64,000 nucleotides of DNA, taken from assembly GCA_054600435.1 (NCBI GenBank), contig BAAIJX010000024.1, positions 186,001 through 250,000 of the forward strand. The letters are read 5' to 3'. The translations under genes and the position numbers were made by a program. The notes beneath the pieces were generated by a model. That model saw nothing but the letters and a program-made list of their open reading frames with translations. It had not been told where the DNA came from and searched no databases. The stretch comes from Neophaeotheca triangularis. Taxonomy: Eukaryota. Shown here piece by piece: positions 2,240 through 64,000 of the stretch (position 1 is the stretch's first letter; every line of letters begins with the position of its first letter).

Positions 2240-2312
2240 CACAACTACACCCACAACCACACCCACAACCACACCCACAACCACACCCACAACTACACCC
2301 ACAACCACAACC
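2240..2312. repeat. (CCACAA/CCACAC)n hexamer tandem repeat immediately upstream of the ATG at 2313
   Basis: About 12 imperfect hexamer units read directly. Confidence 0.9.
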
Positions 2313-38929: not shown

Positions 38930-39890
38930 TCCTCTAGTCTATACCCATGAGGATGCGCACTAAGCATTCGTTCGCTCTCTACGCTTCGATCCAGCTCGCC
39001 CTCATCCTGATCGCCAATTCCCTAGCAATGTCAGCAATCGGATAAACACTGCAAGTCTCCCCGTCGCCTGCACTGGCAAAAGAAGCCACAGCAGCCAGCA
39101 TTGCCGCCTATCAACAGCAACAACGACAGCCGCTCTTCGAACTCGACCTAAAACCAAGCCAACATCAACCAACCTACTCGACGATGTTGCGGCAAGCATC
39201 CTCATCTCCTCTCCGACTGAAACGAGCCGCACGACCTCCGCTTCCTCTAAAACAGTCACCACGACCACAACCGCCACGGCAGAACCAGAACTCTCCCCTT
39301 TCCCAGCTCTAGCAACTGCCCGGCCTCAAACCCGCAACGAAGCAGCATGCGCTTTCTGTCGAATCTGGCATGGTTGCAAAAGCGGCGAACCGAGTTGGCA
39401 CGTATAATCTAGCGCCCTCGTCATCCCCTTAGCAGTTTCTCTAGGTCGTCGGAGTCCGGAAACCCTGCTTTCCTATCGGGTAACTGCGTCGAGAGATTAC
39501 GCGGCCCGGCTAGGGTAGTGCTAACGCTGAATGCGTAGTTTCTCCTGCGACTCCGCACCCTTTTGCGAGTGCTGAGCAAGTAATACTACTGAGGGCTAGC
39601 GCGAGTAAATTCGGGACCTCGAGGGACGAGCGCGAGAGAGTTTTTTTCGATGAGCTAGGTGTGTCAGTGTATATAGGAGGACGCTGCTAGTGATCTTGTA
39701 GCCGCTACCTATGTCCTCAAAACTAGCTATTTGTAGTAGATAGATTTCGAGTGATGTGTATACTTGACCCCCTCGAGGTCGGATAAACGACTACTCGAAG
39801 AAAATTAAGGTGCTAAAGTAAGTAGACCTCTTTATTCAACTCTTTGTCATTGAATAAGCTAATGCTAAAGAAGAGCTTACCAGTTAGTCC
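38930..39890 (+). pseudogene. Degenerate gene remnant at the edge of the RIP region, possibly with a broken Zn-cluster-like motif
   Basis: Open frame of about 145 codons ending AACAFCRIWHGCKSGEPSWHV*, bounded by TAA stops compatible with CAA>TAA; intron-like GTAAGT..GCTAAT..AAG at about 39818-39870. Confidence 0.3.
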
Positions 39891-40214
39891 CTTGTTCTTA
39901 AATAAGCCTACTTACATACAAAAACTTATAGCTAAGAAATATATCACTTATAGGCATATAAGAAGATTAATATAGCTAACAACGTATTCATAATAATATA
40001 TCGTCTTAAAGTAGGTTAACTTTCTATTGTTAAAATTTGTTAAAATTTGTGTATAGTTATTCAAAAATGTAAGGGCCGTACTAGAAGTGTAGAACAACAA
40101 AAAATCGAACGATACCCTAGCGCTAGGAACAATTACAAGTATATGTATTATAAGACATAAGGGTAGTCAAAGTAGTACTACGTAGTCTAGGCTCTCTAAA
40201 CTCCCTAAGACATA

Positions 40215-40900
40215 CATTAACTACGCTATAACTTAGAGCATAGAAAGCGAGCTACGAAATGCCCTAGCCCTCCCTATAAGTAAGTAGTACGAGCCGACGC
40301 TATAGATACACTTAGAAGGTAAAGGCTTATCTAATCGCAGCTAGAGAATTACTCGATATCGTTAGGTAGATCCTCGAGTAGTAGTACTAAGTTCGTAGAC
40401 ATATTAGTTAGGAGATCTTAAAAAGTATTATAGAGGTAAGGAGAGACTTTATACCTTAGGTAGCCTTTATGCCTTCGATTATAGCTTAAAGAGCTTCTAA
40501 GATGTCCTATTATCCGTCGTAGCTTCTACGTTTAATAGCGCGCTTAAGGATAGCGACAGTTTAATTAAGGGTTACTAGTACTATAGTCCTATATATATTA
40601 CCTACTACCTCGGCGAGCTTAGGATCTTCCTCGCTTCCTAAGGCTAGTACGTCGATAGTAGCTTCGATAATAGCGCTAGTTCGAGCGTCGGTAATTTCTA
40701 GACTCGGTTAGATAATTCTAGGCCCTATAATATAACTAGAATTTACTATTAAAGGTAGTATAAGGCCTAGCTACTACGTAATATATAGAGTCGATATTTA
40801 AGCGGATCGAGGGTTTAGCTATTTTTAACGGTTCGAGCTAAACATTAAATTACTAGTAGTAGAATAGCGCCTAGGGCCCTATAACTACGACACGTCGGTA
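40215..40900 (-). pseudogene. RIP-destroyed gene of unknown function with an intron at about 40432-40384
   Basis: Frame LEITDARTSAIIEATIDVLALGSEEDPKLAEVVG...LEAL(Q)AIIEG interrupted only by TAA/TAG. Ends approximate. Confidence 0.5.
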
Positions 40901-41278
40901 AGTACCTAATTGCATAGTTTTATCGTGTTAAAATCAGGTACTACTAGCATGTTTAGCTCTAGACTACACCCTACTAATACTATTAATTATCCCTAAGGTA
41001 TAACCTATAAGGTTTACTAAGTACGGTCCCTTATTAATATAGTAAAGGCCGTACCTATATATAAGTCTAGTATTATATGTATTCTAAATAGGCATTTCCC
41101 TTATCTTCCCTATAATCGGAGTAACGCGCTAGACTAAATGAAGTAGGGTAGGTAACGTAGGGCTAAGCCTCTAGCGCGAGCTATACTAAGAGTAGATAGA
41201 GACTTTATGTCTATAGGTAGTTCGAGTCTTAAGGTAAATACGAGTATATAGGTAACTACTAACTAACTTAAATAGAAA

Positions 41279-41836
41279 ATGCCTCGTAAATTACTTGCTA
41301 GAAAACAGCTTTAAGGAAACTTCTGCCTATACGTTAAGACTATAGCCCTCTCCCTCTACTACCTCCCTAAAATGCTACCTTAGAAGGCTATAGAACTTAC
41401 TAGCCGTACTTACGTTAAAGATAACAACCTTATCTACCGCCTAATACTAGAATTCGCTTAAGGTCGTCGAGAAAGTATATTATACCTTTATATACTAACT
41501 AGAAGCTTTCGAGACTTCGTACTTAGCCTAAGCTTCTTTACCGTAGCTATTCTAAGCTAAATCCGCTATTATCGCTACGATAAACTTAGAGCTCCTATAA
41601 AAGACTACTAACGGTCTACCTTAACCTTCGTACTAATTAACGGCTAGGAACTAGAAGGTCGTAGTAAGCTTTTCGGTATCTTCTTCTAAGCTCTCGTAGG
41701 CCGTAAATATAATAGGAAGAGCCTTCTCTAGAGAGCTAGTAATAGAGTTAGTAGTTAGTTATACGAAAGGTTATAGGTAGTTAAACAGGAGGACTTACTC
41801 TTATAACAGGAAGTCGATACTACTACTTATCATTAA
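41279..41836 (+). pseudogene. RIP-destroyed gene of unknown function
   Basis: ATG CCT CGT... frame of about 185 codons with only TAA/TAG interruptions. Confidence 0.45.
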
Positions 41837-42802
41837 GCGCTAATACGGGGTATAGCTCTAGTATACTATAGCCTAGTTAGCCTCCTACGTAGTATCGGTA
41901 TAATACGCGTACTAGGCCGCGAATCCTATTCTATACCGTATCTTGCCTATAGCTTATATACTAGTAAAGTAGAGGGCTTAGGAAGTTAAGGGGCTATAAA
42001 GAGAATTTGTTATATTATAGCGATAATTATTAGAAGATAGTACTACTACTATAGCTAGTAGAAGTGCCGAGACCCTAGACGACTTAAGCTTAAGGTATAC
42101 TATCTAATCCCGAGCTAGAAGCGCTAGGTCCGAGAAGTTAGTAGTAGTCGGCACGGAGACGAATACGGGTAGTAGGGTTCTAGCTAAACGTAGGACGGCT
42201 AGGGCGTTAGTATAAAGCTCGGCCTAAGATCTAGTTAACGTCTAGGTCTCCTTAACTTTAGCCTTCTCCTCCTTACTAGAAGATAGCGCTAGGGAAGATA
42301 CTTTAGGAGATACTCGTTTAGTAAGAAAACGATACCGCGTTTAAATACTATACCTTAGCCTACCTAATACCTTAGCGATATCTACCTAACGACCTCCTTT
42401 ATCCTTAAATTACAAGATCTATTAGTCCTCTTCGTCTTTAAATACGCGCGCGCGGGTCTTTTACTTTTTACCTATATACTTAGCCTTATCCTCTTCGCGC
42501 TAGTATTAGGCCTCGTAAGATTTAGGAGTCCTACTAGGGAGCTAGTCTACGATAGCGGCCTAGCTTAGTCCCTACGTAACTCCCGCGTATAATATTTATA
42601 TTTTATTACTATCCTACTCTAGTCGACTAACGTTATACTATTTAACGTTAAGGATAGTACTTATTATAACTAAGCCTCGATAATTAGCTCCCGCTATATA
42701 TCGAGTAGTCGTAAGATTAGCGACGTTAGTTAGTAATTAGTCTATAGGCATTAAAGTGTCCCTAGGTTCGCTTTTTAAGGCTAGGGTAGGAGGTAAAGAC
42801 AT
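41830..42802 (-). pseudogene. RIP-destroyed Myb/SANT-domain gene (two repeats at about 42625-42320)
   Basis: Raw translation GLS*AAIVD*LPSRTPKSYEA*Y*RE and FKDEED**IL*FKDKGGR*VDIAKVLGRLRYSI*TRYRFL. Reversing transitions gives classic Myb repeats (LSWAAIADQLPGRTPKSCEAQY; EEDQQIL..K..G.RWVDIA..LGR). Confidence 0.8.
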
Positions 42803-42941
42803 AGAGGTAGAGGGTAAGGTAGGCGAGGATAAGTACTTCCGCTTTTTCGAAGAGTTAGCTACTAAACTAGCTAAGTTTCTACCTACTCGTATCCTAGAAT
42901 GCTCGACTAACGGCTAAGATATAACATGTAGATTAAATAAG

Positions 42942-45550
42942 ATGTCTAGACTTTAGCTAGAGAGTATACTAACTATAAAGGAAGAGGTTAGGGTATTTAA
43001 ATATTATTAGTAGAAACGTACTCTAGTAAAACACCTAGCGAATAATATATCTTACTAGGATACTCCTAGATCCTTCTACGAACGTACTAGGGATACTAGG
43101 GGAATAGAAGCTATATATCGGTTAGGCTACTAGGGTCTAGAAATGCCTTAGTAATATAGAGAGCCCTAGGGCCTTCTACTATAAGGCTTACTAGTACCGC
43201 GTAGGTATTACTAGAAGATTAAAACTACGGTAAGCTTTATCTAATAGCTCTTAATTATTTGCGATATAAGTCTTAGGCTACTACAATTGTTATACTCTAG
43301 TATAAGCGGCAATCTAGGCACTTTAGTATAGAAACTACTATAGCCCCTTAGTCTTTAATGTAGAAGTCGCTCTTTTTCTAAGGTATCTATCGCTCTATAA
43401 GGGGACGTTTTTAGACGTAATAGGACGCTACTATAGCGGAGTATAGGATTTAGAGGATACTTTAAGGCCTACGCTCTACTATAACCGTAAATAGTAGACG
43501 GAGAGAAGTACGGCTCGCTATAAGAGGTAAGTTTAGGAGCTAGATCTATAAGTTACTAATCTAACGAGGGATAGGGTACGAGTTCTCCCTATCCGACTTT
43601 ACTCTAATCGTACTATCGTTAGACTCTATGGATATACTACCCGAAAGTATCGCCGAGTTTAAGCTTATCTTATAGTAGACGAAGAAACCCGCTTAGCGCT
43701 ATATACGCTTCTTATATATCGATAGGAAAATGTGCTGGCTAAGCTAAGCTTAGCTTATCGATAGCTACGACGATAAGGTAGCGCGAAGGATACCTTATAT
43801 CTAGGTAAAGGGAAGTAATAGGGAAGGACGGACGATACTAGTAGACGGAAGTATATAACCTAACTACGAGGTCGTCGTAGTTATTATAGAAGGGCTCCTA
43901 GAGTAAATAGCGCTAGTACCTATAGCGGTATAGCTAGAGAAGGCGAATACTTCCTATAGGCTAGAACTAGTAACCGCTTAGGCGCTATACTAGATTTTAC
44001 CTTTCCTAGTCGATACTAGTAGTATGTAAAGCGTATTAACTAACCTGATTATGGTAACTCTTACCCCTAGTTCTTACTACTAGAATCCTACGACGGGTAT
44101 ACGATTCGATAGATAGTAGCCTTGACTTATAAGCTTACCTAACCTCCGTTTAGTAACTACGAGTAAGCGAGAGTAGACGTTAGACGTATTAGTTTTCAAA
44201 TTCTTCGAAGAAGTTAAGAGTATCCCTAGCTATAAAATCTACCTAAACCCTCTTTAACTAGCCTTATTCGATTTCTTTGTCTACATTCCTAGTATAGGCT
44301 AGCTGTCCTTCGAATTCAAATATTCTTCGAGAACGGTTATAGACACGATATAGGACATCCGAGAACGGCGCTACCCCTTTAGTAATACACGGGCCTAGAT
44401 TATCTACTACTACGTCTATATAGACAGCTATATCTACATCTCGCGCGACGAAGTAGATTATCGTTAGGCTCGAGAGGGTAGCCTTCTATCTAGGAAGCTA
44501 CCGGCCGAGTTCGTTATAAACTATCGCTTTAAAACTTTCCGCTACGCCCTTAGGTATATTAAGTTATATGTAGAGTAGGCTAGACTTACCGTAAATAGCG
44601 TAATCTACGCTATTCGACCCTCTAATACCTACTATAGCTTCGATTAGGATCTTATCGATAGTCGTCTTAACGATATACTCGAATCGTCGTTAGACCTTAG
44701 CCTACTCTAGAACCTTAAGTACACTTAACTAACTCTCCCCTAGGTAAGCGGTATTATTAACGATTAGTACGCGAGGCTACACTTTACTATATGTCTAGCG
44801 CTAGGGCCGGGTTATCCCTAGGCGACTTACGTATTTATCCGCTACTACTAGACTTATATAGAAGTGTATACCTACTGCCGCCGTAGAGTCTTACCCTTTA
44901 AGATAAGTTCTAAGCTAATCTAAGACCGCGAATACATCCTACTACGTTTAGAAGATTATACTTACCCTAGTAATATCGACCCTATATAGTACCCTATAGT
45001 AATTAGACGCGCCTAGTAGAGGAAGCCTACGGAAGGGGTACCTAAATTCTTTATTATCGGAAGTATCTTAGAGAGTACTATCTTAGAGAAGGTAGAGGTA
45101 CGCTCGTCGCTATATGTCTTTATACTATCTAGCTTTACTAAGCTCTCTACTACTAAGTAGAGCCTACTAGTAGCGGACGAAGTATAAAAGGTACGCGGAA
45201 GCTACTACTTTAACTATTCGGCGAGAAGAGAGCTAGATATAGAGGGTCTCGCTTAGCTAAGTAGGAGGGGTAGCGTTATTTTTAAACGAGTACTCTTAGA
45301 TAACGGCATTAATCCCCTTCGATATATTACTAATCTCGCCGACGGCGCCATTAATTGCTAGCTTCGTACTATCTTAGAGGCCTAAACTAACATTTCTATA
45401 TATAGTCGTACTAGCTTACCCGGAGCTAACCGTATGTTCGACCTAAGCGAGTACCGAACGAAGGTACGCCTCGCTATATAGGCTTACTAGGACTTTAGCT
45501 ATAAGTACTTTTGCTATAGAATCTTAGTATATACCTACTAATATTCTTAT
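42942..45550 (+). pseudogene. RIP-destroyed gene of about 830 codons with two PD-(D/E)XK-like motifs; introns 43230-43276 and 43527-43574
   Basis: Exons of 288 nt and 250 nt join in phase to a long third exon. Motifs SDFTL...IAEFK (43592-43663) and FDFFV...SFEFK (44267-44320) lie in one frame. The gene is well supported; the nuclease call is tentative. Confidence 0.65.
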
Positions 45551-45589
45551 TAGACGAGAAGATAGGAAGGGGCTTCTTATAGGGAGCTT

Positions 45590-46181
45590 AATTGTCGGTT
45601 ACCGGTAGAGTAAGAAGCTTAGAGGTATTAATGTTATACGATAGACTACATAATAGCTATATCGAGGTCATTACGTCCTTACCTAGCCTAGCTCCTATAG
45701 GTAACGCTACTACCGACTATCTTCGGCCTTCTAAGAGTTACGTTGTATCCTACCTATTCTACCTTACCCTTATCACTACTATTCCCTATCGCTAGCTCCG
45801 TATAAGAGGTACTACTTTAGGAGACGCTCTAGCTATCTTTATAAAGACGCTCGCTAAGACCTTTATCGAGCTCCTCTACCCCTTCTAGTAAGGCTAATAC
45901 CTAGATACGTAGATCATTAATCTAGGCCTCGTAGTCGCCGTAAGTATTATAGTAATCGACGTAAGGGTCCCCGGTGTTCTTATAATCCTTAACGGTTAGG
46001 ACATAGTTTAAAAGCTTACTATAGATCCGAGCGAGTATCTAGCGTACCTCCTTATTAATAGAGATATATGACTTAAAGCCCTATTAGTTAAGATCCCTAT
46101 AGAAGGTTATAGTAGTAGTCGAAATTATAGAAGCTACTAGAGACTTAGGAATCTTTAAGGATTAGTACTTATTAAAACATG
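45590..46181 (-). pseudogene. RIP-destroyed gene of unknown function
   Basis: Frame FKSYISINKEVR*ILARIYSKLLNYVL...INDLRI*VLALLEGVEELDKGLSERL. Confidence 0.45.
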
Positions 46182-46526
46182 CTTCTTACGGTTAATCTTA
46201 CTCGGAAGGCTACTAAAAGACGAAGCTATCTAAATGTAGTAGAAAGCTTAGGGTTAATTAGAGTAGTAAAGGATTATCGTCTTATTATTCTTTTCTATTA
46301 TAGGGCGAGGAAGCGGCTACTAATAACGTTAGACTCGTCGCCCTAATCGAGCTATACGAGACATTAGTAGATATATAGTTTAGTTACCCCTTATAATGTC
46401 TAGCTAGCTATTAAGACATAGGCGTATTAGTACTTTTAACAATGTTAACCAGATAAACTCGGCGTCTATCGAAGGATAGTCCGCAAATATCGACGGATAG
46501 TAACGGGAAAACTCGTAAGCTAAAGC

Positions 46527-46749
46527 TATAAGACCGAGACTATGACTCGGTCGGGATCACGGCGGAGCGAGGGCGGAGCGTAATAATGGTAACAACAGTA
46601 ACAGTCCTTTAATATAGAAACTATTCGATAGTAGATAGGATACTTCACTGTTAGCTATCTCATATACTTTCGCAGTATGTACGCTTAGCATTCCCGAGCT
46701 ACTCCGTAGCTTAGGCCGCCGATGTCCCGCTAGTACTACGGTCGTAACA
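46527..46749 (-). repeat. 3' LTR (223 bp)
   Basis: Aligns without gaps to 54068-54290. About 22 differences by manual count, all C/T or G/A transitions. Termini TA..CA here and TA..TA in the other LTR fit RIP-altered TG..CA. Confidence 0.97.
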
Positions 46750-46764
46750 ATTACCTCCCTCTCC
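46750..46764 (-). other. Polypurine tract
   Basis: Minus strand reads GGAGAGGGAGGTAAT immediately before the 3' LTR. Confidence 0.85.
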
Positions 46765-47463
46765 GGTAGCTCGTCCTCGAGCCGGCACTTATAAGCATAG
46801 TTATGCGAGATCCGTTATAGCGCGTATATCGGCATCCTCGTTAAAAACCTCGGTAGTGTCTTTACTAAGGAAAAGAGTAATACCGCGTACCGCTATCGCA
46901 CCGTCGGGTCCCTAGAGTGAATTTACCCTAAACCTGAGTTCGCTACGGCGAGGTGCGTTATCGTCGCGATAAGCGGTATTAACGGCTACGTGGCGGTGAT
47001 CTAGCGGAGCGGTAATTACTAGCGGAGCCTTAGCGTAATTACGCTATAATTACGCGGAGGTAACCTACTAGCCGCTTCTCTTTCGAAGACTTCCTCCTTT
47101 TAACTATAATAATAATAATAGCCTCTACTCCGTCGTAGTCCCTTCGGCATACCGGTTTGCCTTTTAACAAGGTGATCTTCTTTATCGGTAAGTGAACTTT
47201 AGTTCTTTATGTATACGCTACCGTCGGTCCGCATACGGTTCCTATTGTTCTTCGACAATGAAACTAACCTTACCTAGTTTCCTATTATTACCTACTTCCG
47301 GTAACCTTTCGAAAACCTTACCTAGCGCGGTTTAACAAAAAGGCGCTCCTCGTACCTCCGACACCTTCTTTCCTTCTTTATCGACTACTTTTTTCGCGAT
47401 CTCGCTATCGCCCTTTTTCGCCAGCTTTATTCACTACCTTTATTACTCCGCCGCTATTCTATT

Positions 47464-48805
47464 ATACCTCCGCGTGTTAGTAAGCGTCCGAAGGCGCTAG
47501 TCGACTATAGCGTTAGCGCTATAGCCGTTAACAGTAAGGGTACCTTTACTATAGATAGCGCGATTGTCGCTAAGGGAGTCTTTATGACTAAGGGCCGCTG
47601 TCGGATCGCCGCTAGTAGCTTTACGGAGGGGGAGTTAAAGGATCTAGTTAACGAGTCGAAGTCTACTAAGAAGGGTTTAAAGTCGGAGGGTATTAGTACG
47701 AAGCGCGCTACGGCCGTTAAGGGTACGGGCTCGAAACGTAAGCGTGCTAAGGGTAATAATAGTAAGGAGAGTAGGTCTAATAAGGGTACGCCGGCGTTCT
47801 ATCGCTTCGCCGACATCGATAAGGGTAAGGAGCTTACTCCTATCGATGTTAATCGCCCTCGTTATTCGCGCTACATTAAGGAGCTCTTAAGTAACGTTCT
47901 CGATAGGTCCGTCGACTTTTGTCCTATTATGTAAGACAGTGCCTTCCGCGACCGGATCGGTATACAATACCTACTTTAACGCGAAGTAATCGTACATCGA
48001 GGTAAGCCCGCTATGGCTCCGTCGTCGTTACGAGTTTTCACTAACGTCTCTTTAGATTATTCCCGACCTCGCTAGCTAGCGCCTCTACTATGTCTAGATA
48101 AACTATACCGCTATACTCTGTCGCGCTAACCGTGCCGGTAGTTCCGACGCTGATTCGCCGATATACCTTAAGGTCTTAGAAGTCGACGCTAAGGTCTCCT
48201 AGTACTTCTACAAGAATAACCGCGCCGTTATCCTAACGGGGGGCCTTCGTCGTTCCGGTCCTAATAACGATAAGATCTTGACTCCGTACGACATAGCACG
48301 CCTAATCACGGATTAAACTCGCGACTTCGCCACGATCGTTACCGATACTATCGAGAGACTTGTCGCTGTCTACCGCACGGAAATGTCCGTGCTTATCGGC
48401 GAGATGTCTAGCTACCGTCGCGCCGCGTCTTCTTCTTCGCTACTACGCGAGACTCCTAGTCTTAGTGAGTCGCCGCCTTACGATAAGACCGTTAGTACGC
48501 TAGCGCTAGTAGTAGCTCCTAAGGTACTAGCGGTAGAGACTAAGGGTCTAGTTCGGAAGAGTAGTAGGGGCGACGCCGGTACGCCGCTAGAGGTATCTTC
48601 TAGGGAAAGCTCTTCTTCGTTAGAGTCGGATAAGGAGGATAAGGCTCTAAAGAAGCCTTCTAGTATCTTAGGCTTCCTTAGGATACGCCGTAGGGACGAT
48701 ACCGCTCCGTCGGCGGGAGAGAATGCGGAGAAGTCTGTTAGTGCTAAAGATTAGCTACAGGCTAATATTGCTAATGTTACGAAGGAGTTAGACACTAGGG
48801 CTTAA
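47464..48805 (+). pseudogene. Extra antisense, spliced gene inside the retrotransposon encoding a putative six-Cys Zn-cluster-like protein; intron 48002-48055
   Basis: ATA(ATG) CCT CCG CGT start in frame with track ORF 47584-47934. A 1-nt frameshift in the T run near 47917-47920 and a GTAAGC..CTAAC..TTTAG intron join it in frame to track ORF 48383-48754. Confidence 0.7.
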
Positions 48806-48880
48806 GCGTTTGTCTAATCATTTGCGTACTCTCTATAAGCGCTATTATCCTGTCGCTAGCCCGTCCGTAGTAGCTATTAA

Positions 48881-51800
48881 TTAAGAAGCTTGTGTACTAC
48901 GTCCTTTTCCTACAGTTTTCTTCTTTTTCCCTAGCTATGTATTCTTAACATTCTTCTTCTTCGGGCTTTATGTTTTCTTTCCACGCTTCTTTTTCGCGCC
49001 GCCGTAGGTCCGCTAGTGTTACTTGAAGTCTACTATCGCTTCTTTCGCGTTGTTTAGATACTTCTCTTTCTCCTAGATACCCTCTTCTATTAGCTAATCT
49101 TTCTAAAGAACCTAGTACATCTTGTCGCCGTCGTCGTCGAGACCGGATACCGTTATTTCGTCGACAACCTATTCGCTACCTCCGTCGACTTCTCGCTCTA
49201 CTAGTAGTACAAAGTCGGCGCGTCGGTAGTATGGTTCGAGGAGAGAGACGTAGAAGATGTTATAGGTCTTTCTAAGGTATAGAGGTAGGGCTAATCGGTA
49301 TACTTGTTTTCCGACCCTTACGATAACTCGAAAGGGCCCTACATAACGCGAGGAGTACTTTTTAGTTAGTCCTAACGTTTTCAGGTTTTTCGCGGAAATA
49401 AGAACCTCGTCGTCGACACTAAATACCATAGGATCGTGTTTTCGGTCGTAGTATTCCGCCTACTTGCTAACGGCGTGCCGAATGTTCTCCTCGACGACTT
49501 CGCGAATTGCTTTCTAGTTCTTAGTTCTTTCTTAGAGGTCGGGGATTGTCGGTTTGCTGCCTCCCTCTCTAACGGCGTTATCCGTAATGCCGCTAGGCCG
49601 TTAGGGCTCCGCCCCGTAGATAGTAGAGAATGGCGACACTTTAGTCGATACGCTTACGCTATTATTATAGGCGAATTCAGCCTATACGAGGTAATAAGGC
49701 TAATCTGTTTGTGTAAAGTTAACAAAACATCGTAGGTACTATTCTATTATTTAGTTTTGCCTCTCCGTCTACCCGTTAGACTAAGGGTAGTACGCCGTCG
49801 ATAACTTGCGCTCGGTTTTCTAATACCGAAGGAGCTCTATCTAAAACGCGGAGGTGAATATACTACCTCTATTAGTTATAATCGATTTTGGCTTACCGAA
49901 CTTAGTAAGAATTTCGTGCTCGAAAATATCGGCTAGCTAGCGGGCCCCTATCGCTTCGCTAATAGGGATATACCTTACGAACTTTAAGAAGCGGTTAACA
50001 ATAACTAACACAGAATCGACTGTTTCGCCCTTATATGTCTCTACGACAGGCAACTTAACTACCATGTCTATAGACTAATGCTTAAAGATCTTATTAGTAC
50101 CCGGAACCCTTAGCGATTATAGTGCGCCGTAGGGCCGGTAGCAGCGCGACTTATGTCTTTAGTAGGTGTCATACCTAAGGACATACTCTTCGACATCCTT
50201 AGTCCACTTAGGCTACTAAAACTCCTTGTAGAAGACGGCTTTAGTCTTCCCTACTCCTAGGTGTCCTACTAATAGGTCCTCGTAGTAGTAGCTTAGCACG
50301 GCGGCCCGTAGGCTTTCTACTAGCGGCATATACACCTTTCTATTAATCTTAAGAAGTCCTATAAAACTAACCGACCACATAGGCGCGGCGCCGTCGGCGT
50401 CTCCGCGGTACTATCCCTCGTCGATCTCTTTACGAATGCGTTTAGTAAAGGGGTCTCCCTACTATACGCGTAACATATCCGCTCTAAGGTCGATTCGGTC
50501 TACCGCTACGTTAGGCTCTCTAGTGTCTAGCTCGGTAATAGCGAGTATACCTAGCTGCTTACCTACGGGGTTATAATAGGTCGGCGCTACTATAGCGATA
50601 GAGCTAGTCGGGTTTAGTTTACCTCCCCCTTAGAGCGTTCGCTTAGTATACATAGTATCATTACTCTAAAGCTTATTGTTTAGAGGACCGGTGTCTCCGG
50701 CAGCTATCGTGTAGCCCGCCGGCGAGGCGGCTAACGCCCGGTAGTTTACCGGCGCTATATACCCTAGCGACATAGATAGGATCTCTACTCTATCTTCGGC
50801 GGCCGTCTTACGGCTACTCGCCGGAACTTCGGCGGCCTTATAGTAGCCCGCTAGGGGAGCGAAAAGCCTAGTTAATGTAGGTAGTATCTCCGCCCTACTT
50901 AATTCTCTATCGGCCTCTATGTTAGGATAGCGCGAGAGCCCGTCTACTCTAGGGTTTGATTTACCTTCACGGTATATAATCTCGATATCGTATTACGATA
51001 GCTCTTCCGTAGCGCGCGCTTAGCGGCCTAACAATTTCTTTGTCGATAGGAAGTACTTTAGATTGTTATGATCTATAAGCACCTAAACTTTACTCTTAGC
51101 TAACAATATGTAGTGCCGCTATTAGCGCGTCGCCTCGACGATAGCGAGCAGTTCCTAATCGTGTACTAGATATCGCAACTCTAGCCCTTTAAGCTTCTTA
51201 GAGTAATATGCGACTAGATGCTATAGCGTGTCCGAGTGCTTCTACGCGAGTATACCTCCTAATGCGTATCCTAATGTATCGGTCTTAAGGCAGGTCTCTA
51301 GCGTAGCGTTAAAGTGCCGTAGTACTAGTGCTAAAATGAAGCTGTACTTTAACCTTTTAAAGGATTTTTAGGCATCTTTACCTAGTAGCTACCATTTACC
51401 GCCGCTATGCCGTAGGCAGTCCGTAAGGGGAGCGGTGATCTTTATATATCCCTCGATAAAGCGACGATAGAAATTCGCGAATCCTAGGAACACTTAGAGT
51501 TCTTTTAAGGACTTTAGTATCGGCTAATCTTGTACTACGGCTACCTATAGGGGCTCTATCGCTACTCTAGTAGAGTTAATAACGAAACTAAGGAATCTAA
51601 TCTCTCGGACCATGAACTCGCATTTCTCGAGGCTAGTATACAGCTTAGCGTCGGCGAGCCGACGGTAGACCGCTCGAACGTGTTCGTAGTGTTCTGCTTT
51701 AGTGCGGGAGTAGATAAGAACGTTATCTATGTATACTACGTAGTAGTAGTTAACTAGCTCTATGAGCACCTTATTAATAAAGGCCTAAAACGATGCCGGT

Positions 51801-52872
51801 ACATTAGCGAGTCCGAAAGGCATGACCTTGTATTAGAAATAGCCGTACTAATAGCAGAACGCCGTCTTCTACTCGTCGCCCTAGGCGATACGTAAACGGT
51901 AGTATGCCTCGACTAAATCGATTTTCGAAAACCACGTTGATCCGCGGACTCTATCTAAGAGTTCACTAATAAGCGGTAAAGGATACTTGTTTTTAATGGT
52001 GATTTCGTTTAAGCCTCGGTAATCGACGCACATTCGAAGTTTGCCGTTTTTCTTCTTAACGAATAGTAACAGTACGCTAGCGGGGCTAGTACTAGGCTTA
52101 ATGCGGTCCGTTACGAGCAGGTTATTAATCTATGACTACATTTCCTCGAGCTCTAGCTTAGAATATAGGTAGATTAGTCTACTAGGAGGGTTTTTTCCTT
52201 CGACTAGTTCGACATAGTAGTTATAAAGCATATACGGAGGTAACTCTTTCGCCTTCTCCGATTCAAACACCTCGGCGTACTCCGCTAACCACTTAGGCAC
52301 CCGCGGCTCCGCCGGGGTCCCGCGTAGGTCTTCTACGCTAACGGCGAGGATAGATGCTCTACTGTTAATATCTCGGGCTAGTTCTTTAGCCTCGATGATT
52401 TCGACTTCTTCTTTATTATACACGCCGCCATAGCGCTACTACACTAGCGGCGACGCGAAATCGAGCTATGCTTTTACGGATCGGATCTAAGGCATTCTAA
52501 GAATCATTTCGTAATCCTTCTAGTTCACTACTTCGAACATCTACAGGATAGTCTAAACTATACCGTCTAAATTAGCGACTGTAGTATAGAGTCGACATCA
52601 GCCTACTATTAGGGCTTCGACGTCGCCGAAGGCTCGTAGCCTGCGAATCCGGTCACCCTTTATCGGCAGGTTATACCGGACCGCGATGTCTTCCGAGATG
52701 ACATTATAATGCGCTCCCGTGTCGATAAGCCCGTAGGCCTCGAAGCGTAGCCCGTTACGGGTACGATCGTATATCTTTACGATAGCCTATAGGCGCTCTG
52801 TTAACGCACTGCCTACTTGCCGCCCTAAGCCTTTAAGGCTAATAATTAAATGGCCTAGGGCTAAGCTTTTCC
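48881..52872 (-). pseudogene. pol: gypsy pol (protease, reverse transcriptase, RNase H, integrase, chromodomain)
   Basis: AYGLIDTGAHYNVIS (protease); [27 protein letters not shown] and YIDN (from YIDD) in RT; integrase C-terminus SRYVGPFRV..VYRLALP..FYVSLLEPY followed by a chromodomain-like segment. Confidence 0.93.
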
Positions 52873-54018
52873 CTTTCGGCAATTTTCTTGCTAGTAGCCT
52901 TTATTACTACACTTAAAACAAAGGTTTTCTTCGAGGGCTTTGTTGTTTCGTTCGCCACTATTAGTCGTACCCGTGCGGTTCACGCCGGTTACTAGTATTC
53001 TATCGGTACGCTAGCGGCGCGGTTTAGAGTTATTATCGCTTATGCTCTAGTTTTGTTCTCTTTTCCTATAGCTAGAACCTCTTAAGTCGGTCTTACGTAG
53101 CTTGTCCGCTATCTCGCCTCTAGCGTCCTAGCCGCCGCGGCTAGTATCGTCGAGGCGCGTGTAAAGCGCGACGAGGTTATGCCGGTTGTCCGGCACCGTC
53201 GGCTAGGTATTTAGCTTAGCCTTAAGATTTTCCTATAGACCTGTCTTAATAAGGGTAAGGAGCGTATACTCTAGTAGCGGGGCGACGTCGGCCTCGCGGA
53301 GGGAGTCTTCGACATACGAGAGGTAGTCGTGAATAGATTAGGTCGCTCCCTAAACATGTCTAAAACCTCGGAACGCTATATTTATGGCGCGGTTTTCGGG
53401 GTCGAGGATCTAATCTAGTAGCTATTCTTTAAACATAGGCTATTTTATCTCTTCGCGTTCGAGTCGTGATTCTTTACTCTCCTAGTTCTAGCCGACGCGG
53501 CCGTATAGGCGGCCCGCGGCATACTAGACACGCTCGTACTAATAAAAGTAAACATAAGGGTATGTCTTAAACACACGCTCGCATTACTAGATAAACGTCT
53601 GTGCTTTTAGGAGATTAGGATAACTCCTATAAACCGTTAGTTCGGCCGAGCGAAAAGCTTTCTCGATATCGATATGAGCCTTTCGCTCCTTTATCGTTAC
53701 GCCGGCAGGTAGATCTTTGTCTACCGTCTACTTACGTGCTACTAGGGTAGGGGCAATGTCCGCTAGGTCCTCCGGTTCGATATGTCCTCTTTCGGACTCG
53801 TCGTAGGGGACTATCGCTCTATCGGCGGCTCGCTAAATAGGCGCTATACGCTCTACTAATTGCTGTCGGAGTTCCGTAATAGCGGTAGTAAGGACTGTGT
53901 ATTAGTCCGTCGCCGCCTCTTCTTGTTCTTATAGGGTGTTGACTCCGGTTATAGTGTTAGGGGAGTCCGCTAGGTTAGCGTCGTTAACCCGAGGGCGTAG
54001 CGAGCGCGATAGTGCTAT
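52861..54018 (-). pseudogene. gag: gypsy gag with C-terminal CCHC zinc knuckle
   Basis: 386-codon frame from ATA(ATG) at 54018 ending LCFKCSNKG(H>Y)(W>*)QENCRKGKA*. Confidence 0.85.
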
Positions 54019-54067
54019 AATGTCCGAGCGAATCTTAACCTGAAAAGGTTCTAAGATCGAATAGAAT

Positions 54068-54290
54068 TATAAGACCGAGACTATAACTCGGTTAGGATTA
54101 TAGCGGAGCGAGAGCGGAGCGTAATAATAGTAATAACAGTAACAGTCCTTTGATATAGAAACTATTCGATAGTAGACAGGATACTTCACTATTAGCTATC
54201 TTATATACTTTCGCAGTGTGTACGCTTAGTACTCCCGAGCTGCTCCGCAGCTTAGGCCGCCGATGTCCCGCTAGCGCTACGGTCGTGATA
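54068..54290 (-). repeat. 5' LTR (223 bp)
   Basis: Partner of 46527-46749; followed by AAAGC. Confidence 0.97.
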
Positions 54291-54589
54291 AAAGCGTAAT
54301 AGCCGAGAAGTTAGTATACATTTATCGGCTACTTATATATAATGCGTAACACCTTAAATAGCTATATACGCTATATGTAGTACACGTTCTTTAAATATTA
54401 AACCGATAGCGATATATAGATTATGCCTTACGCTTATAGAAAGTAGCGGCGTCCGCCTACATTATGCCTACCGTTCCTATATACTTAGCCGCTATAATCG
54501 ATTAAAGAAACTATAACATTTAATTAAATAGGAGCCTATTTCTATTTATCCCTCCTCCGTTATACTAGCGTACTAACGAACAAGTCTAG

Positions 54590-55715
54590 TAGACTATACT
54601 ATCTAACGCTAATGTCCTAAGGGATATCCTACCCTTAGACCGCTTCTTCTAGTAGTAAACCCTATTAGAGTAAATGTCGCTATCGGTATACGATAGGAGG
54701 TAACGCTATAGCGATAGGGTTCTACTAGCTAACAAGATAACTACTATAGCGCTAAACGAGATAGCTATATACTATAGGCGAGGCTTCTTCTTCTACCTAC
54801 TACCTCGCGATATCTAGAGGAGAATAGTAGCTAAGAACTTCCTACTAAAGGGTAGAGTACCTCCTATACTAGGGTAAGTCGGGTACTTAACAATACGTTC
54901 TATAGTAGTATATTAGCTAATAGCTATGTAGTAGTACCTTATTCCTATAGATTATCTTTATATATTACGTTTAGGACGATACTTTACGTACTACGTTCCG
55001 TACTAAACCGTAGAGGTTACGAAATTTAAAGTATAACGCTATTATTAATCCGCCTACAAATGCGACTCCGCTATACTCGATATAGTTCGCCTCTTCTCCC
55101 TAAGTAGCTCTATATACGACACCGAACGCTTCGCTAGCCTTATTAGTAACCGAATTAAGCCTATACCTTACGGATACCGATAATTTAGCGAACGCTATCG
55201 GAAAATGGCCTAAGAAGAAGTAGATAATAGCTCTAGACATAGATAGTAAGCTAGACACTGCCCCTTACCTTTAGAACCTATCGAGCGTTACTAGTAAAAC
55301 CCGTCCTAGGCTAACGTCCCTTTAAAGTTTCGATTATCCTAGCCTTAAAGCTATCTATAAAGAGATCGTATATCGCTATACCCCGGTCTATAACGATAGC
55401 TTAAAGGCGACTCTACTTACTAGAAACCTTCGCGAGATACTTCCCTATAGAAAAGACCTAGACTATAGCTCGCCGCTTAGTATAGACGCTAAAAACGGGC
55501 TATAAGTAGTTAGGACTTCCGAGCTATAGTACTCGTAGGGTATCCGAACGCGTAGTATAGGGCGGTAACCTAAGGAGATAGTAGATAAAGAAGCGAAGGA
55601 GTAGGAGGGAAGTAGTATAGGTAGAATTAGTAGTAGAGGAGATAACGGAGTAAAGGCTACGAGTATTATGTTAATCGATCTTACTAAGGACGAGGATAAG
55701 GAAAAAGAGGTGTAA
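54590..55715 (+). pseudogene. RIP-destroyed gene of unknown function with an intron near 54874-54951
   Basis: Long frame ending ...MLIDLTKDEDKEKEV*; GTAAGT donor and GCTAAT branch retained. Start approximate. Confidence 0.5.
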
Positions 55716-55929
55716 TAATTAACTAGGGGTACCTAGGGCATACTTAAAGTATAATTCGTAGAGCTTTCTTTATACTTATACCTTACTTTATATAATGCTC
55801 GATTAAAGTTAGCTTAGTAATCTCGGACTTCCTTTAGACTATAAAAATTATAACTTCATATTACTTATCTAGGTATAGACTATAGTAACTACATCCGAGA
55901 GTTGATAAGGGGCGTTAGAACAGAAATGA

Positions 55930-56477
55930 ATAGTCTAGTTAAGCCTTATTATATAGTAGAGACGACCTATAAGGTTCTTAGCCGGATCTAGATTCACTAA
56001 TACCTATAGTTAGCTTCTTAACTCTTTAGGATTTGATTACCCTAACGAGAGATAACGTAGACTAGTACCGGGATCTTTCTTACTCGTTCGGCTACTATCG
56101 AAAAGTGATTTTAGGGCTATTCTACGCCTTAACGATATATTTAGACCTTTCTTATAGCGATATAATAGCTTTACGCGATAAGGTCTAGTAGGGCGGTTCT
56201 TAGTCCGGTTTTTATAAGCGTATATGTTATAAGGGTATAAAGCTCTAGGTCTACTACTTCGGAAGGGCTAGTTACCTAGTAAGAGGTTATAGGATGTCTA
56301 TTGTCGACGACGGAGCCGAGCTACCGACCTATAGTTCGACTACCCGTCGTTAACATAGCCTCTATATAGTAAACCGGCTTTTCGAGACTAGTTATGAATT
56401 CTAAGGCTAAACGGTTTATAGAGGGTCTATTTAATAGCTATAGCGGTCCGTTAAGTTCGTATGTCTCTATAGGCATT
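55930..56477 (-). pseudogene. RIP-destroyed gene of unknown function
   Basis: Frame MPIETYELNGPL*LLNRPSINRLALEFITSLEKPV... with only TAA/TAG interruptions; intron-like GTAATC..GCTAAC..TAG near 56040-56005. Confidence 0.4.
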
Positions 56478-56615
56478 TAGGCGTGACGTAGATACCGTAA
56501 GCCTTCGATGTTTTAGCTTACTTTACGTGTCTTACGACTAGAGTCTCGTACTATACCTAATAATATAAGAGTATACTAGTAGTATAGCTATCTGTACTAT
56601 AATCTCTAGAATACT

Positions 56616-57635
56616 ATAAAACGACGAGGTTAAAAACCCGGTATCGAGTCCTTCTAGACCTACTTCGAGATACTAATAAAGTCGAGCTCTAAAATCTTCG
56701 CTATTGTTTTAGTAGTTAGTACTAACTCGGAAACGCTTCTTAGCTATCGCGTAAACAGGTTCATTATATATAGAAACAGCGACAGTGTCGAAACCCTAAG
56801 AATTTACCTAGAGCTTCGTACGAATCTTTTAATAGGTCGCCTTAGCCTAGTCTTTAGTATACGGCGTATAGTAGACGTACGGCTCGAGCTAGGGGAAGAA
56901 TTAAACTATGGCGAAATCTATAACTATCATTTCTTTCTTACGCTTAATAAGCAAAATGGTCGTCTCTCTATTATAGACACCTCCTATAGATATACTTAGG
57001 TTAGTTATAGTCTATCGGGACCGTATATATGCCTAAGCTTGTCTACTTATAAGATCTCGGCTCCCGTTTACGTAAGACTTAGGTATAAGGTACATTACTC
57101 GATTAAAATCATTCCCACTATGCTCCCGAAATCGCCTATAGATAACGCTAATCTAGTCCGCTCGTCTATATACTTAAGTAGCGAGTAGCGGAGATCGAGC
57201 GGCGAGTAAAACTAGTAGGTCGAGCGCTATAGATCGAGTACGCGCCCCTATAAGTAGGTAGAGCGCTATAGGTCTAGTACACATTAGTATAAGTAGAGGA
57301 AACGCTATAAGTCTAGTATATACGAACCGGAGTAGTATAAGTATAGGCGCCCTAATATCGACTAAAGTAATACGCTTTAAAGATCTATACCGCCTATCCG
57401 ATAAGCCCGGCCTACGAAGAAGCTACTTTATTCTTATCTTATAGTGTTTCCGAGGTAAATTCCCCCTTTCTTAATTTGCTAGAAACCGGATATACTAATA
57501 TTAATTATAGTAATCTAGCTAGCTATTACTAACTACGGATCCGACGTCGTAATTAATACTATAGAAGGACCGGGGCTCGGGGTATAGAGCGATAAAAGAG
57601 CGGTTAGGCGGCACACTATATGTAATTCGTAGTAA
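56616..57635 (+). pseudogene. RIP-destroyed FHA-like domain gene
   Basis: LLIGR...VDVRL...HFFLTLNKQNGRLSIIDTS..T*V (about 56826-57002) follows the FHA GR/H/D-x-S pattern; intron near 57455-57510. Confidence 0.55.
57217..57322. repeat. 39-bp coding tandem repeat, about 2.7 copies
   Basis: Units begin at 57217, 57256 and 57295; each encodes ERYRSST-like peptides. Confidence 0.8.
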
Positions 57636-57699
57636 GTAAACAAATGTACATGTTATATAGCGAGCGTACTCTAATAATCATAACACCTTCCTAAACTAA

Positions 57700-59250
57700 A
57701 TAATTAGCTTTAATAGCTACGCTATAGACCGTCTAACAGCTTTACGTATAGCCTAAGTACGAGGACTAGGCTACTAAAGTTATATAGTGCTCCGAAACAA
57801 TCTAGTCGTCTATGTATAACGCTTAAATGCCCTTCTATAGAACGCATCCTTAGCTTTTAGAGGCGTTCGGCTCTCTTCTAGAGGACCGAGAATGCTTCGA
57901 GCTAGCTAGTATAGTTATACTAGAGTTTAGAGGCTCTAGTAGTAGTAATAGTCTTTAACGTAAAGACCCTGCTATTACCCGGCTCCTCGAAAGGGTTAGC
58001 CCGTACATTTAGTACTCCGTCGACGTCGCTAAAAGTTAGAGCTCTTTCGATACTAGCGAGTTCTAGGCCGAAAAAAGATTGTTCTACGAAGCGGAGATAT
58101 ATAGAGTCTACCTCCTCTTATATTATAGGCAAACCTTTACCGTAGAGGAAGAAGACTAGATTAACTAGTAGCTCGACGCCTACCCTCTAGTACTACGAAG
58201 GGCGATAATATAGTGATTTATCTTATATCTTTACTAGTAAGTTAACGAGTGTTAGCGATCCGTAGTCACTATTACTTATACTCTAGTATAGTTATCCCGA
58301 TTCTCTTAACTCGGTCGGCTAACGTACCCGTTTATAGTATTTAACGTACTAAAACTTTAAGAAGTAGAACTGTTCGGGGAGACTAAGGACGACTATCGTA
58401 AGTCGGTAGGAGGGGTAGGGCGGTAGGCCTTAGTAGCTTATAAGTTTTCGGGATAAGTAGTTAGAATAGTAGCTCGCCTCGCCGTAGCTTTACCTAGGCA
58501 ATATACGCTATTATTAATGTAAAACTCTAGTTATCGTAGTATTTAGGAGCTACGAAAAGACAGGCCCGTCGGTGTTTTAAGGTTATATTAGTTTTAGATT
58601 TATAGGAGAGACTTAGGTAGCGTTCGAAGGTTATTTGTAAACATAGTAGGCTAGTCTCTAAACTACTCCGACTCTATCCTCGACCTAATACACCTAAAGA
58701 TACTCCTATATCCTATACCTCTTATATAGTAGCTAGTATCCTTTTAAAGATTAGCATTATACCTATAGAAACCCTATAATAGCTATAAGCGTTTAGACCT
58801 ACTACCGCCCCTTTACTCTTCGTTACCTATAGTAACGCTACTTCTAGCTACTTCTACTAGAACGGTATAAGCTAAGTCTCCTAATTCGGTAGAGGCTTTA
58901 GTCTTAGGGGGTTTGTCAGTCGTAAGAGAAGCGTCTTACTTATAGTAGTAGCGATAGTACCCGAGCTCTTCGTACTTATCGACGACCTTTATATCGATTC
59001 TTAGCGACTAGTCCGAGTTAAGCTATATAGATATTTGTAGCTTTAGCGTACTACGGACATGTTAGCCGTCTTCGGTTAGCTTCTAGGTAGTAAAGACTAT
59101 AATGTTTTCGGTAGGCATTATAAGATAATTTAGTTACCTATAAAGCTAGTTAGTATAGCGGGACATCTTATGTACTTCTACCCTATTTACCTTTTAATTA
59201 CTTACGAAGTCTACTTAGTAGAGATAATAAGCCCTTACTTCCTATCGGAG
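57700..59250 (-). pseudogene. One or two RIP-destroyed genes of unknown function
   Basis: Frames such as VGVELLVNLVFFLYGKGLPII*EEVDSIYLRFVEQSFFGLELASIERAL and LRIDIKVVDKYEELGYY. Boundaries uncertain. Confidence 0.4.
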
Positions 59251-59490
59251 TAGCTATAAACCCTCTATAACTATAAAGGTAAAGGGGAGAGGGAAGGAAG
59301 TTTCCTATACGTTATAAAGGTATAGAGTAGAAAGGAGTCTTTTTCGTTATAGTAAACCACTACGACATTAGTATAATAGAAGACATATTGTAATAGCTAT
59401 TATTATTAGCGATATATATGTAAGCGACTCCCTCGCTAAATTATACGAACCTTAGTACTAAGAATTCTAGAACACTATAGTAAAATCAAA

Positions 59491-59943
59491 ATGTAAACAA
59501 TCCTACTCCTTACTATCGCTATACTCGGTTTTATTAGCATTATACTAACTATCGCTCTAGCTATACTTCGTAATATTATCTAGTTCCTTATAAACCTAAT
59601 TACCGAAACCCTAAGCCTCTACTACTACATAATCACGTAACCTAAATTCTAGGAGGGAGTCTTTAGAGTATATAACAAACTACTACAATTTAACGCGAGC
59701 TTTATCGAGCTACCCGTCCCTATCGTCGAATATGTTAAGTAGTAGTAGAGAACTAACCGTAAACCGCCCCCTAACCGTCTAAGCGCCTAATCCTAGTATT
59801 AACTACACTACGAATAGCGCCCGAGGGGACATTAGTAATTATTAGGAGGTAATAGTAAGGGTTCCTATATAGAGGAGGAATTTGTCGTTTAGGGACTTAG
59901 GGATCGGCATATAGGACGACTTAGTATCTACGAGAATGTTTAG
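59491..59943 (+). pseudogene. RIP-destroyed small protein with N-terminal hydrophobic segment
   Basis: ATG TAA(CAA) ACA ATC... translates to M(Q)TILLLTIAILGFISIILTIALAILR. Confidence 0.45.
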
Positions 59944-61600: not shown

Positions 61601-61749
61601 CTTAGCTAGTCGAGGGCGTAATAGGTAGTATAGAGGTTAATAGCATCTTTAAGATAGACTCGTCGCTAAAGAATTAGTAGAGCGCGCGCCTAACTATTAT
61701 AGTTATGTAATTCGGGGCTACGATAATAAGTTATACTAGATTAGCTAAG

Positions 61750-63395: not shown

Positions 63396-64000
63396 TAGTT
63401 AAAGTTCACGGTCCCTACTTCATGTTATGTAGCCTTAGGATGTAGAGACACACGTATCGTAATATAGAGTTATTAGCTAGGGTCGAGTAGTGAGTGTAGA
63501 AGTGTGTCGCTAGTAGGTCTAGAGTGGCTAGCTTCTAAATTGCTATAAAGAACGGATCGTCTAAAAGTGCTCCACGCCTACTACGTCGCCCCGGGCCGAA
63601 GGAGGGAGACTTTAGATTACTAACTACTCGCCCGAACTATCCGTATACGTTCATTTTGTCATGTATACTATGGCGAAAGTTTTGACAGAGCTTTTTCGAC
63701 TACTAGAGTTTAAGGCGAATGTTCTTTTTCGACTCGATTTCCGTAAGTGTCTCTTTATACTTCTTAGAAGAGAGATTAATCCCTATACTTATAGTAGGCA
63801 CGACGCTAAACGCCTTCACGTTATCATCGATTATAACCCCTAGCTGCTCGAGGCTCTCGAGAGCTTAACCGAGCGAATTAACATAGCCCGCGTTGTCGTT
63901 CAGTAGGCTATCGACGGCGGAACGGAAATCGGGGGAGTTTAAAGTGCTAATAATTAAGTAGGAGAGGTAGTAGGCGTCACTATGCCTAAGCTAATCGGCG

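Follow-up and report, generated by a model that had tools for sequence, protein, structure and literature searches.

An antisense, probably intron-bearing gene between pol and the 3' long terminal repeat in a mutation-inactivated copy of a Ty3/gypsy retrotransposon family in Neophaeotheca triangularis

Results and discussion

The sequence considered here, hereafter the window, comprises 64,000 nucleotides of contig BAAIJX010000024.1 of Neophaeotheca triangularis (assembly GCA_054600435.1; positions 186,001 to 250,000 of the forward strand), and all coordinates refer to positions within it. At 46527-54291 it contains a single copy of a filamentous-fungal Ty3/gypsy retrotransposon family of approximately 7.8 kb, which lies on the minus strand and has been inactivated by repeat-induced point mutation (RIP). 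The 2.1 kb between the polypurine tract (PPT) of this element, ending at 46768, and the end of its pol gene (~48950) hold a gene on the plus strand, convergent with pol, as had been proposed in a preliminary description of this DNA. The copy is probably a RIP-killed member of a gypsy family that carries an antisense, intron-bearing module, the product of which is an orphan protein with a likely accessory role in the nucleus.

An antisense gene integral to the retrotransposon family

The 2.1-kb region is enclosed by the long terminal repeats (LTRs), a 5-bp target-site duplication and the PPT, and the module is therefore placed inside the element. Other copies were sought in the contigs of four datasets, namely X1 (33 Mb of contigs), X2, which is labelled as another organism, and the air metagenomes X3 and X4. 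In X1 the summed depth per bin ranges from 1948 to 3412 over the module (six bins, 47176-48939) and from 2308 to 4252 over gag-pol, as opposed to 268 to 342 in the flanks; as summed contig depth is not a copy count, the presence of the module in most copies is an approximate statement. The module is also covered in X2, X3 and X4, and contigs bridging the end of the gene and the end of pol occur in both X3 (record 18; 48633-49225) and X2 (record 12; 48759-49010). The antisense module is thus integral to the retrotransposon family, with all sampled members carrying the 2.1 kb. A lack of this region in other copies would have refuted the preliminary description, but it is found in all four datasets, at about the depth of pol in X1. 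Among the 1327 changed places in X1, 1263 are C>T, G>A, A>G or T>C, and this dominance of transitions fits RIP working independently on the copies.

The upstream region of the antisense gene (46769-47187, plus strand), which would include the promoter and a first leader exon, shows no codon periodicity (chi2 7.6, p 0.27) and is multi-copy in X1. It is followed on the same strand by a putative leader intron of 90 nt (47188-47277), a pyrimidine-rich (CT-rich) leader (47278-47463; R1 0.27, Y3 0.76; no periodicity, p 0.34), exon 1 (47464-48001), a putative in-frame coding intron of 54 nt (48002-48055) and exon 2 (48056-48805). Exon 1 (~179 codons), delimited by alignment of copies and by periodicity, incorporates a KRKR motif in the basic string GSKRKRAKG, ahead of a Cys/Tyr stretch that starts at 47863, and an extra T near 47916-47919. 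Exon 2 (232 or 249 codons), delimited by translation, includes a Ser-rich acidic tail, ahead of which a low-confidence model predicts a small beta-rich part and then a long helix. The product would be an orphan protein of ~410-430 residues, with one stretch in which most Cys, and perhaps His, residues may have been turned into Tyr by RIP.

Two further proteins, P0003 and P0004, both unnamed singletons from Logan according to a cluster look-up, represent two independent copies with ORFs (open reading frames) in the same frame as the window. P0003 (283 aa) derives from a 1483-nt contig of X3 corresponding to window positions 47121-48601, and P0004 (156 aa) from a 4151-nt contig, while P0005 denotes the exon 2 sequence of the window itself. 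P0003 and P0004 both begin with Met-Pro-Pro-His-Val-Ser-Lys-Arg, where the window reads ATA-CCT-CCG-CGT. Because both start with Met at this point, the ATA at 47464 is likely the start codon, lost in the window through a G-to-A change. Exon 2 contains five internal TAA/TAG stops, the fifth of which (TAG, 48752-48754) may be the true end of the gene, as an alternative to the final TAA at 48803-48805. In addition to the lost start codon, the window copy carries a 1-nt insertion and six internal TAA/TAG stops (a count that includes the possible true stop at 48752 and leaves out the intron acceptor TAG and the final TAA), and the gene in this copy is dead.

Evidence for an ancestral coding frame

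There is good support for the view that the antisense gene was a coding gene in the ancestor of this element family. All five of the window stops that overlap P0003 (three in exon 2, the others in exon 1 and at the intron acceptor) are Gln in P0003. Furthermore, every in-frame stop of the antisense gene is TAA or TAG, with no TGA, and RIP makes TAA and TAG from CAA, CAG or TGG. Such stops make up ~1.4% of the codons of the antisense gene (6/~429), compared with 60 among the 1283 codons of pol in the same copy. The frameshift in the window consists of one extra T, and a 1-nt omission at 47919/47920 is found in three X1 contigs, two X2 contigs and the X3 contig, with P0003 and P0004 remaining in frame across this site; the frameshift is consequently not fixed, whereas its fixation in all copies would have counted against the preliminary description.

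Three-base periodicity is pronounced in exon 1 (chi2 61.3, p 2e-11) as well as in the two parts of exon 2 (chi2 23.8 and 30.0), and is absent from the upstream region, the CT-rich leader and the spacer toward pol (p 0.27-0.72). The value for the C-terminal part of the exon exceeds those of all 101 equal-length windows from the RIPped flank (maximum 27.8). It is the full base periodicity that is informative here, GC content by codon position being uninformative for the antisense gene. The indels listed within the coding sequence (CDS) keep the frame. They comprise +ATA, a pair of insertions (+CG and +G) that share a contig, and skips of 138, 66, 190 and 109 nt, the last two of which include the extra T of the window and would, without it, measure 189 and 108 nt. 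The frame-preserving pattern among these listed indels is suggestive. The earlier proposal that an extra antisense gene with intron motifs belongs to the family and was open before RIP is supported by depth, stops that read Gln elsewhere, the intron motifs and periodicity.

Predicted introns

A strict intron motif was defined as GTAAGY, followed by RCTAAC and then by YAG within 3-20 nt. The plus strand of the 2.19-kb region contains exactly two such motifs, and these are the two introns named in the preliminary description. The leader motif (47188-47277) is composed of GTAAGT at 47188, (A)CTAAC and a TAG ending at 47277, and the coding-intron motif (48002-48055) of GTAAGC (48002-48007), ACTAAC (48040-48045) and TAG (48053-48055). 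In 300 second-order Markov simulations the mean number of strict motifs was 0.15 and the probability of two or more 0.003, while the 24-kb RIPped part of the window has seven matches on both strands together. Three X1 contigs retain ACTAACGTCTCTTTAG and then run on into exon 2. In a further X1 contig one nucleotide is missing at 48039, within the coding-intron motif; this is the sole listed 1-nt omission away from the frameshift site and would be harmless in an intron but a frameshift in coding sequence. The acceptor TAG of the 54-nt intron in the window corresponds to Gln (CAG) in P0003. On this sequence evidence 48002-48055 is rather probably a real coding intron.

One X1 contig skips exactly 48465-48530 (66 nt, in frame), a segment that starts with GTGAGT and ends with TAG, with a branch-site-like string that is merely CTAAG; GT..AG ends occur in one of the six listed skips. 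One copy may thus have lost a further short intron here, or the segment may have been deleted by chance.

Homologue and fold searches

P0004 was the only protein recovered when 1.84 billion representative proteins were searched with a profile; this RIP-weakened query had 283 positions and covered all but the C-terminal 160 residues. Word-based protein searches recovered only P0003 and P0004, and none among the shorter proteins. Scans of metagenome contigs with P0003 and a RIP-tolerant 56-letter pattern, and of viral contigs with P0003, the same pattern and a reverse transcriptase (RT) fragment, returned nothing, and thus neither an un-RIPped copy nor a related element came from these scans. 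AlphaFold2 models had a mean pLDDT (predicted local distance difference test) of 34.6 for P0003 and 56.4 for window positions 48056-48460, neither of which is usable, and no PDB structure matched the model in a Foldseek comparison at E <= 0.001. There was likewise no usable match of the whole protein in the ESM Atlas. Residues 198-283 reached scores of up to 0.81 there with several OB-fold families, a level that shuffled proteins often reach, and these apparent look-alikes are a lead only.

Several observations weigh against the proposed gene and its function. The nuclear or regulatory role is drawn from analogy and from one short basic motif, and the transcript, its promoter and its splicing at the two introns are predicted. 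In P0003 the 54-nt intron contains no stop and is translated as 18 residues, and this segment is hence possibly coding. No homologue beyond the element's own family was found among the 1.84 billion representatives, as far as the 283-position profile extends. The multiples-of-three pattern of the indels may be incomplete, since it derives from the best-supported ones, with ten further indels not shown. P0003 ends at a TAA that it shares with the window (48314-48316), which is either the true stop, leaving a downstream frame of 145 codons unexplained, or a shared RIP change; the latter is favoured by the periodicity and by the fact that the frame stays open for those 145 codons. Finally, the depth of X1 contigs that omit the extra T at 47916-47920 is 273/1272 and 299/842 in two alternative placements. 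About half of the X1 depth at the site keeps the T, several copies seem to share the frameshift, and frameshifted copies may have multiplied or been duplicated by other means.

Among PDB sequences, the exon 2 part at window positions 48119-48283 matches only chains of the ribosomal protein eS21, over ~54 residues that include the surviving Cys of the window, with twelve matches for profile A2 (E 0.37-1.1) and fourteen for P0005 (E 0.26-1.9). An identification as eS21 was rejected, as these E-values are at least 0.26 and neither Pfam, NCBIfam nor the fold comparison lends support; the exon 2 part has no match in Pfam or NCBIfam at E up to 10, and Foldseek does not return eS21. The similarity is a weak lead that might hint at an origin by gene capture. 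The module could accordingly be imagined as a transduced piece of a host gene, for example an eS21-related one, carried as a passenger without a role, with its antisense orientation and introns simply reflecting that DNA, and not RNA, was captured. LTR elements are known to acquire extra ORFs by such transduction of genes, as the available part of one source relates (PMC11963269). This explanation is nevertheless unlikely. The eS21 matches are non-significant and come from copies of one family, and no host-type homologue of the whole protein was found among the 1.84 billion representatives. Transduced ORFs are moreover described in the same partial source as occurring in one or a few copies (PMC11963269), while the module is present here at about the depth of pol and in runs labelled as two different organisms and two air metagenomes. 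Frame-preserving indels and periodicity also point to a retained coding frame.

RIP damage and the zinc-cluster question

The preliminary description read the Cys/Tyr stretch of exon 1 as the remnant of a Zn2Cys6-like cluster. In the window the stretch is RPRYSRY, then 18 residues across the 1-nt frameshift, then C (TGT at 47930) and x10-YNTY-x6-Y, with the codons of the proposed ligands at 47863, 47872, 47930, 47960-47971 and 47990. One of the six proposed Cys codons is indeed unmutated, the other five reading Tyr. Ligands 1 and 2 are Tyr in all three copies (window, P0003 and P0004), ligand 3 is Cys in two of three (window and P0004) and Tyr in P0003, and ligands 4 to 6 are Tyr in both copies that cover them. 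The idea that all six had been Cys is therefore borne out at the third position, and at the other five Tyr is found wherever the stretch is covered; since all three copies are RIPped, they decide neither Tyr nor Cys as ancestral.

The extent of RIP is apparent from the TA/AT ratio, which is 2.41 in the CDS compared to 0.75 in the genic part of the window, and from (CA+TG)/(AC+GT), which is 0.24 and 1.18, respectively. As estimated from dinucleotide counts, about three quarters of the CA/TG sites in the CDS have been lost, and a Cys codon (TGY) would for this reason usually read TAY. Exon 2 shows a Cys/Tyr polymorphism of this kind, with ...AILCRANR in the window and ...AMLYRANR in P0003. The integrase and gag zinc-ligand motifs of the same copy, which we take to be of the usual form, can serve as a gauge. 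The integrase zinc stretch reads ...SYYYEDLLVGHLG... and ...YVLRYDTY*RHK..., in which Tyr has taken the place of the first His and of both Cys, and in the gag knuckle CFKCSNKGY*QENC it has replaced the His. Any given Tyr of the element may hence be a former Cys, a former His or an original Tyr, as these ligands show both Cys and His changing to Tyr. Over the integrase (~50120-50300) and gag knuckle (~52950-52990) stretches on the minus strand, four of the eight expected zinc ligands are now Tyr. Richness in Tyr was also considered as a trace of a Cys/His-rich domain and rejected, the count of 11/113 being unexceptional compared with pol windows (mean 7.6, maximum 14).

Zn2Cys6 proteins have the spacing C-x2-C-x6-C-x5-12-C-x2-C-x6-8-C (Zn_clus, PF00172). 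The spacing here is x2, x18, x10, x2 and x6, with Cys in any copy at position 3 only. P0003, P0004 and P0005 have no Pfam family at E up to 1, and the window ORFs none at E up to 0.1; with Tyr replacing Cys, a profile search could overlook a true Zn2Cys6 member. Membership of the Zn2Cys6 class is not supported by these sequences, and a zinc site of some kind in the Cys/Tyr stretch is possible.

It is quite unlikely that the antisense gene specifies a DNA-binding regulator of the Zn2Cys6 (fungal binuclear cluster) kind, with an extended first loop, by which the element would regulate itself or counter silencing. The pattern Y-x2-Y-x18-C-x10-Y-x2-Y-x6-Y is present downstream of the KRKR motif, the third ligand records a RIP change from Cys to Tyr within the motif itself, and the conversion of both integrase Cys (YVLRYDTY*), together with the loss of about three quarters of CA/TG sites, shows how such a cluster might have been erased. 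On the other hand, 13 of the 15 ligand observations are Tyr, with five of the six positions Tyr in every copy, and each may equally be a former His or an original Tyr, in a stretch whose Tyr content is ordinary for this RIPped element. The 18 residues between the second and third ligands also violate the x6 of the class definition, there is no Zn_clus match in Pfam and the structure models are of low confidence, and the data fit equally well with a simple zinc ribbon (CxxC...CxxC) or with the absence of any zinc site.

The weakest alternative, a non-coding 3' internal region in which ORFs and intron motifs arose by chance from RIP-skewed sequence, might draw on the GTAAGT/CTAAC-like strings that RIPped TA-rich DNA yields (the seven strict motifs in 24 kb) and on the lack of a homologue, domain or confident fold, but is highly unlikely given a frame that is open in three copies with window stops as Gln in P0003, a periodicity confined to the exons and above all 101 flank windows, the simulated probability of 0.003 for two or more motifs, and the low share of stops relative to pol.

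Anatomy of the element and its surroundings

Both LTRs of the element are bordered by AAAGC, a 5-bp target-site duplication that has no strand (46522-46526, partner 54292-54296) and is evident from alignment of the LTR ends with the flanks. The 3' LTR in element sense (46527-46750, minus strand) is a 224-nt direct repeat, 90% identical to the 5' LTR (54068-54291, minus strand). The LTRs start with TATAAG, and end with AACA in the low-coordinate copy and GATA in the other. One X1 contig contains the empty site, joining 46521 to 54291 with five shared letters, and thereby confirms the element ends. The segment that abuts the 3' LTR (46751-46768, minus strand), which reads ATTACCTCCCTCTCCGGT on the plus strand and has a purine-rich complement, is the presumed PPT on the basis of its position and composition.

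The pol gene (48950-52798, minus strand), recognised by Pfam and translation, comprises a protease, RT, RNase H region, integrase, SH3_Tf2-1 and a chromodomain-like end, and has 60 in-frame stops. Pfam matches along the minus strand are an aspartic protease (52598-52786), RVT_1 (51545-52129), Integrase_H2C2 (50216-50410) and SH3_Tf2-1 (49169-49459), while RNase H and the integrase core had no Pfam match in the fragments examined. The gag region (52800-54067, minus strand) was delimited by translation, and its zinc knuckle, assigned by eye, is presumably the canonical one. Direct LTRs with a short target-site duplication, and the order protease, RT and integrase in pol, are those of the Metaviridae. 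The assignment to gypsy is shown by the LTRs, the duplication and Pfam, while the further label of chromovirus given in the preliminary description is only likely. The region after SH3_Tf2-1 resembles the chromodomain of CDY1 weakly (E 1.4) and gave no Pfam Chromo match when X was placed at its five TAG stops, which sit at what we take, by eye, to be the expected Trp positions of the motif.

In other X1 copies, LTR ends of the same family abut ~48849-48853 and ~48683-48691. One of these ends is direct, with an apparent 5-bp duplication CCTGT if transitions are allowed, while the second has the inverted orientation. Both resemble solo LTRs or nested insertions, grouped where the antisense gene ends.

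AT-rich, heavily RIPped DNA (GC 0.37-0.49) makes up the right-hand 24 kb of the window, as compared to the genic left part (GC 0.48-0.62). The flanks of the element (39500-46526 and 54297-64000) are more degraded than the element itself (GC 0.37-0.42), and 27 ORF fragments of at least 55 aa in this flanking RIPped DNA have no Pfam family. The empty-site contig of X1, presumably from another copy of an older repeat into which the element inserted, suggests that this flank is itself such a repeat.

Possible role of the antisense gene

An intron in an antisense gene survives retrotransposition, as the genomic RNA is transcribed as the complementary strand, on which the intron is never spliced; the introns predicted here would have persisted in this way. 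By analogy with Grande, RIRE2, Retand and Boty, the orphan protein would most likely act as an accessory factor in the nucleus, expressed from a promoter of its own and modulating transcription or integration of the element. The convergent transcript might also form double-stranded RNA with the 3' end of pol. A more specific version, in which the gene specifies a new kind of accessory protein, nuclear, zinc-binding and Cys/His-rich with non-canonical spacing, that acts in trans on the LTR or on host silencing, is improbable. If true, it would provide a fungal counterpart of retroviral antisense regulators and, with a gene that would be unrelated in sequence to brtn, would imply that fungal chromoviruses gained such regulators more than once.

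The copy in the window is dead and alone changes little. The family is of wider interest because a second fungal family with an unrelated antisense gene that keeps its intron would show that this layout arises repeatedly, and would give an added handle on function, be it regulation of the element, nuclear import or control by way of double-stranded RNA. For annotation, it may be advisable to check the opposite strand of long pol-to-LTR regions in fungal gypsy elements, RIPped copies included.

Comparison with known systems

A class of LTR retrotransposon ORFs that lie antisense in the interval from pol to the 3' LTR has been described before, with Grande, RIRE2, Retand, PvRetro13 and brtn of Boty given as examples in the available text of two sources (PMC7264820, PMC11963269). 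A nuclear or regulatory role is suspected for these accessory ORFs, with none having an established function in the portions of these sources that were available (PMC7264820, PMC11963269), and the fungal case named there is brtn. The Grande protein is nuclear and transcribed from its own promoter, as stated in part of one of them (PMC7264820). The accessible passages of four papers place brtn in Boty elements of Botrytis and Sclerotinia (PMC8365987, PMC7264820, PMC4227169, PMC5987419), and the accessible part of Novikova et al. 2010 draws an 'add. ORF' in fungal elements, with no function assigned to it (PMC2864245). A word search of open-access text returned no fungal chromovirus with an antisense intron-bearing gene besides brtn.

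The element described here has the arrangement of the aORF-3R class, with an ORF between pol and the PPT/3' LTR, on the opposite strand and, judging by the approximate X1 depth, in most copies. Like Boty, it is a fungal gypsy element with a pol that is probably of chromodomain type and an antisense gene between pol and the 3' LTR, which in Boty occurs in a subfamily of copies. The two genes differ in having no detectable similarity, as far as the RIP-weakened search of 1.84 billion representatives goes, BRTN being unconfirmed among these. The host here combines GC-rich genic DNA with strong RIP, in which it is unlike Botrytis.

The plant aORF-3R elements (Grande gene23, RIRE2, Retand ORF4 with a TRP28 domain and PvRetro13 ORF2) similarly have an antisense ORF in a long region between pol and the 3' LTR in most copies, and its product is suspected to be nuclear or to bind DNA. 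They differ in belonging to another host kingdom and mostly to non-chromovirus lineages, as the available text indicates for Retand (PMC11963269), and in TRP28 or SMC domains, for which there is no Pfam match here. The pol-to-LTR region of Retand, at 2.9-6.6 kb, compares with 2.1 kb in the present element. With Zn_clus (PF00172) the product may share a possible C-x2-C...C-x2-C-x6-C after a basic stretch, if the Tyr are former Cys, and it is set apart by a first loop of 18 residues rather than 6, by Tyr at five of the six ligand positions and by the absence of a profile match. HTLV-1 HBZ and HTLV-2 APH-2 are likewise encoded on the opposite strand near the 3' LTR, with nuclear regulatory products suspected, but have no sequence relation to the present gene, and these retroviral genes are transcribed from the 3' LTR, according to the available parts of the two sources (PMC11963269, PMC7264820). 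The layout is thus already known, and the antisense gene of this family may be read as a further, sequence-unrelated case of the antisense ORFs found between pol and the 3' LTR.

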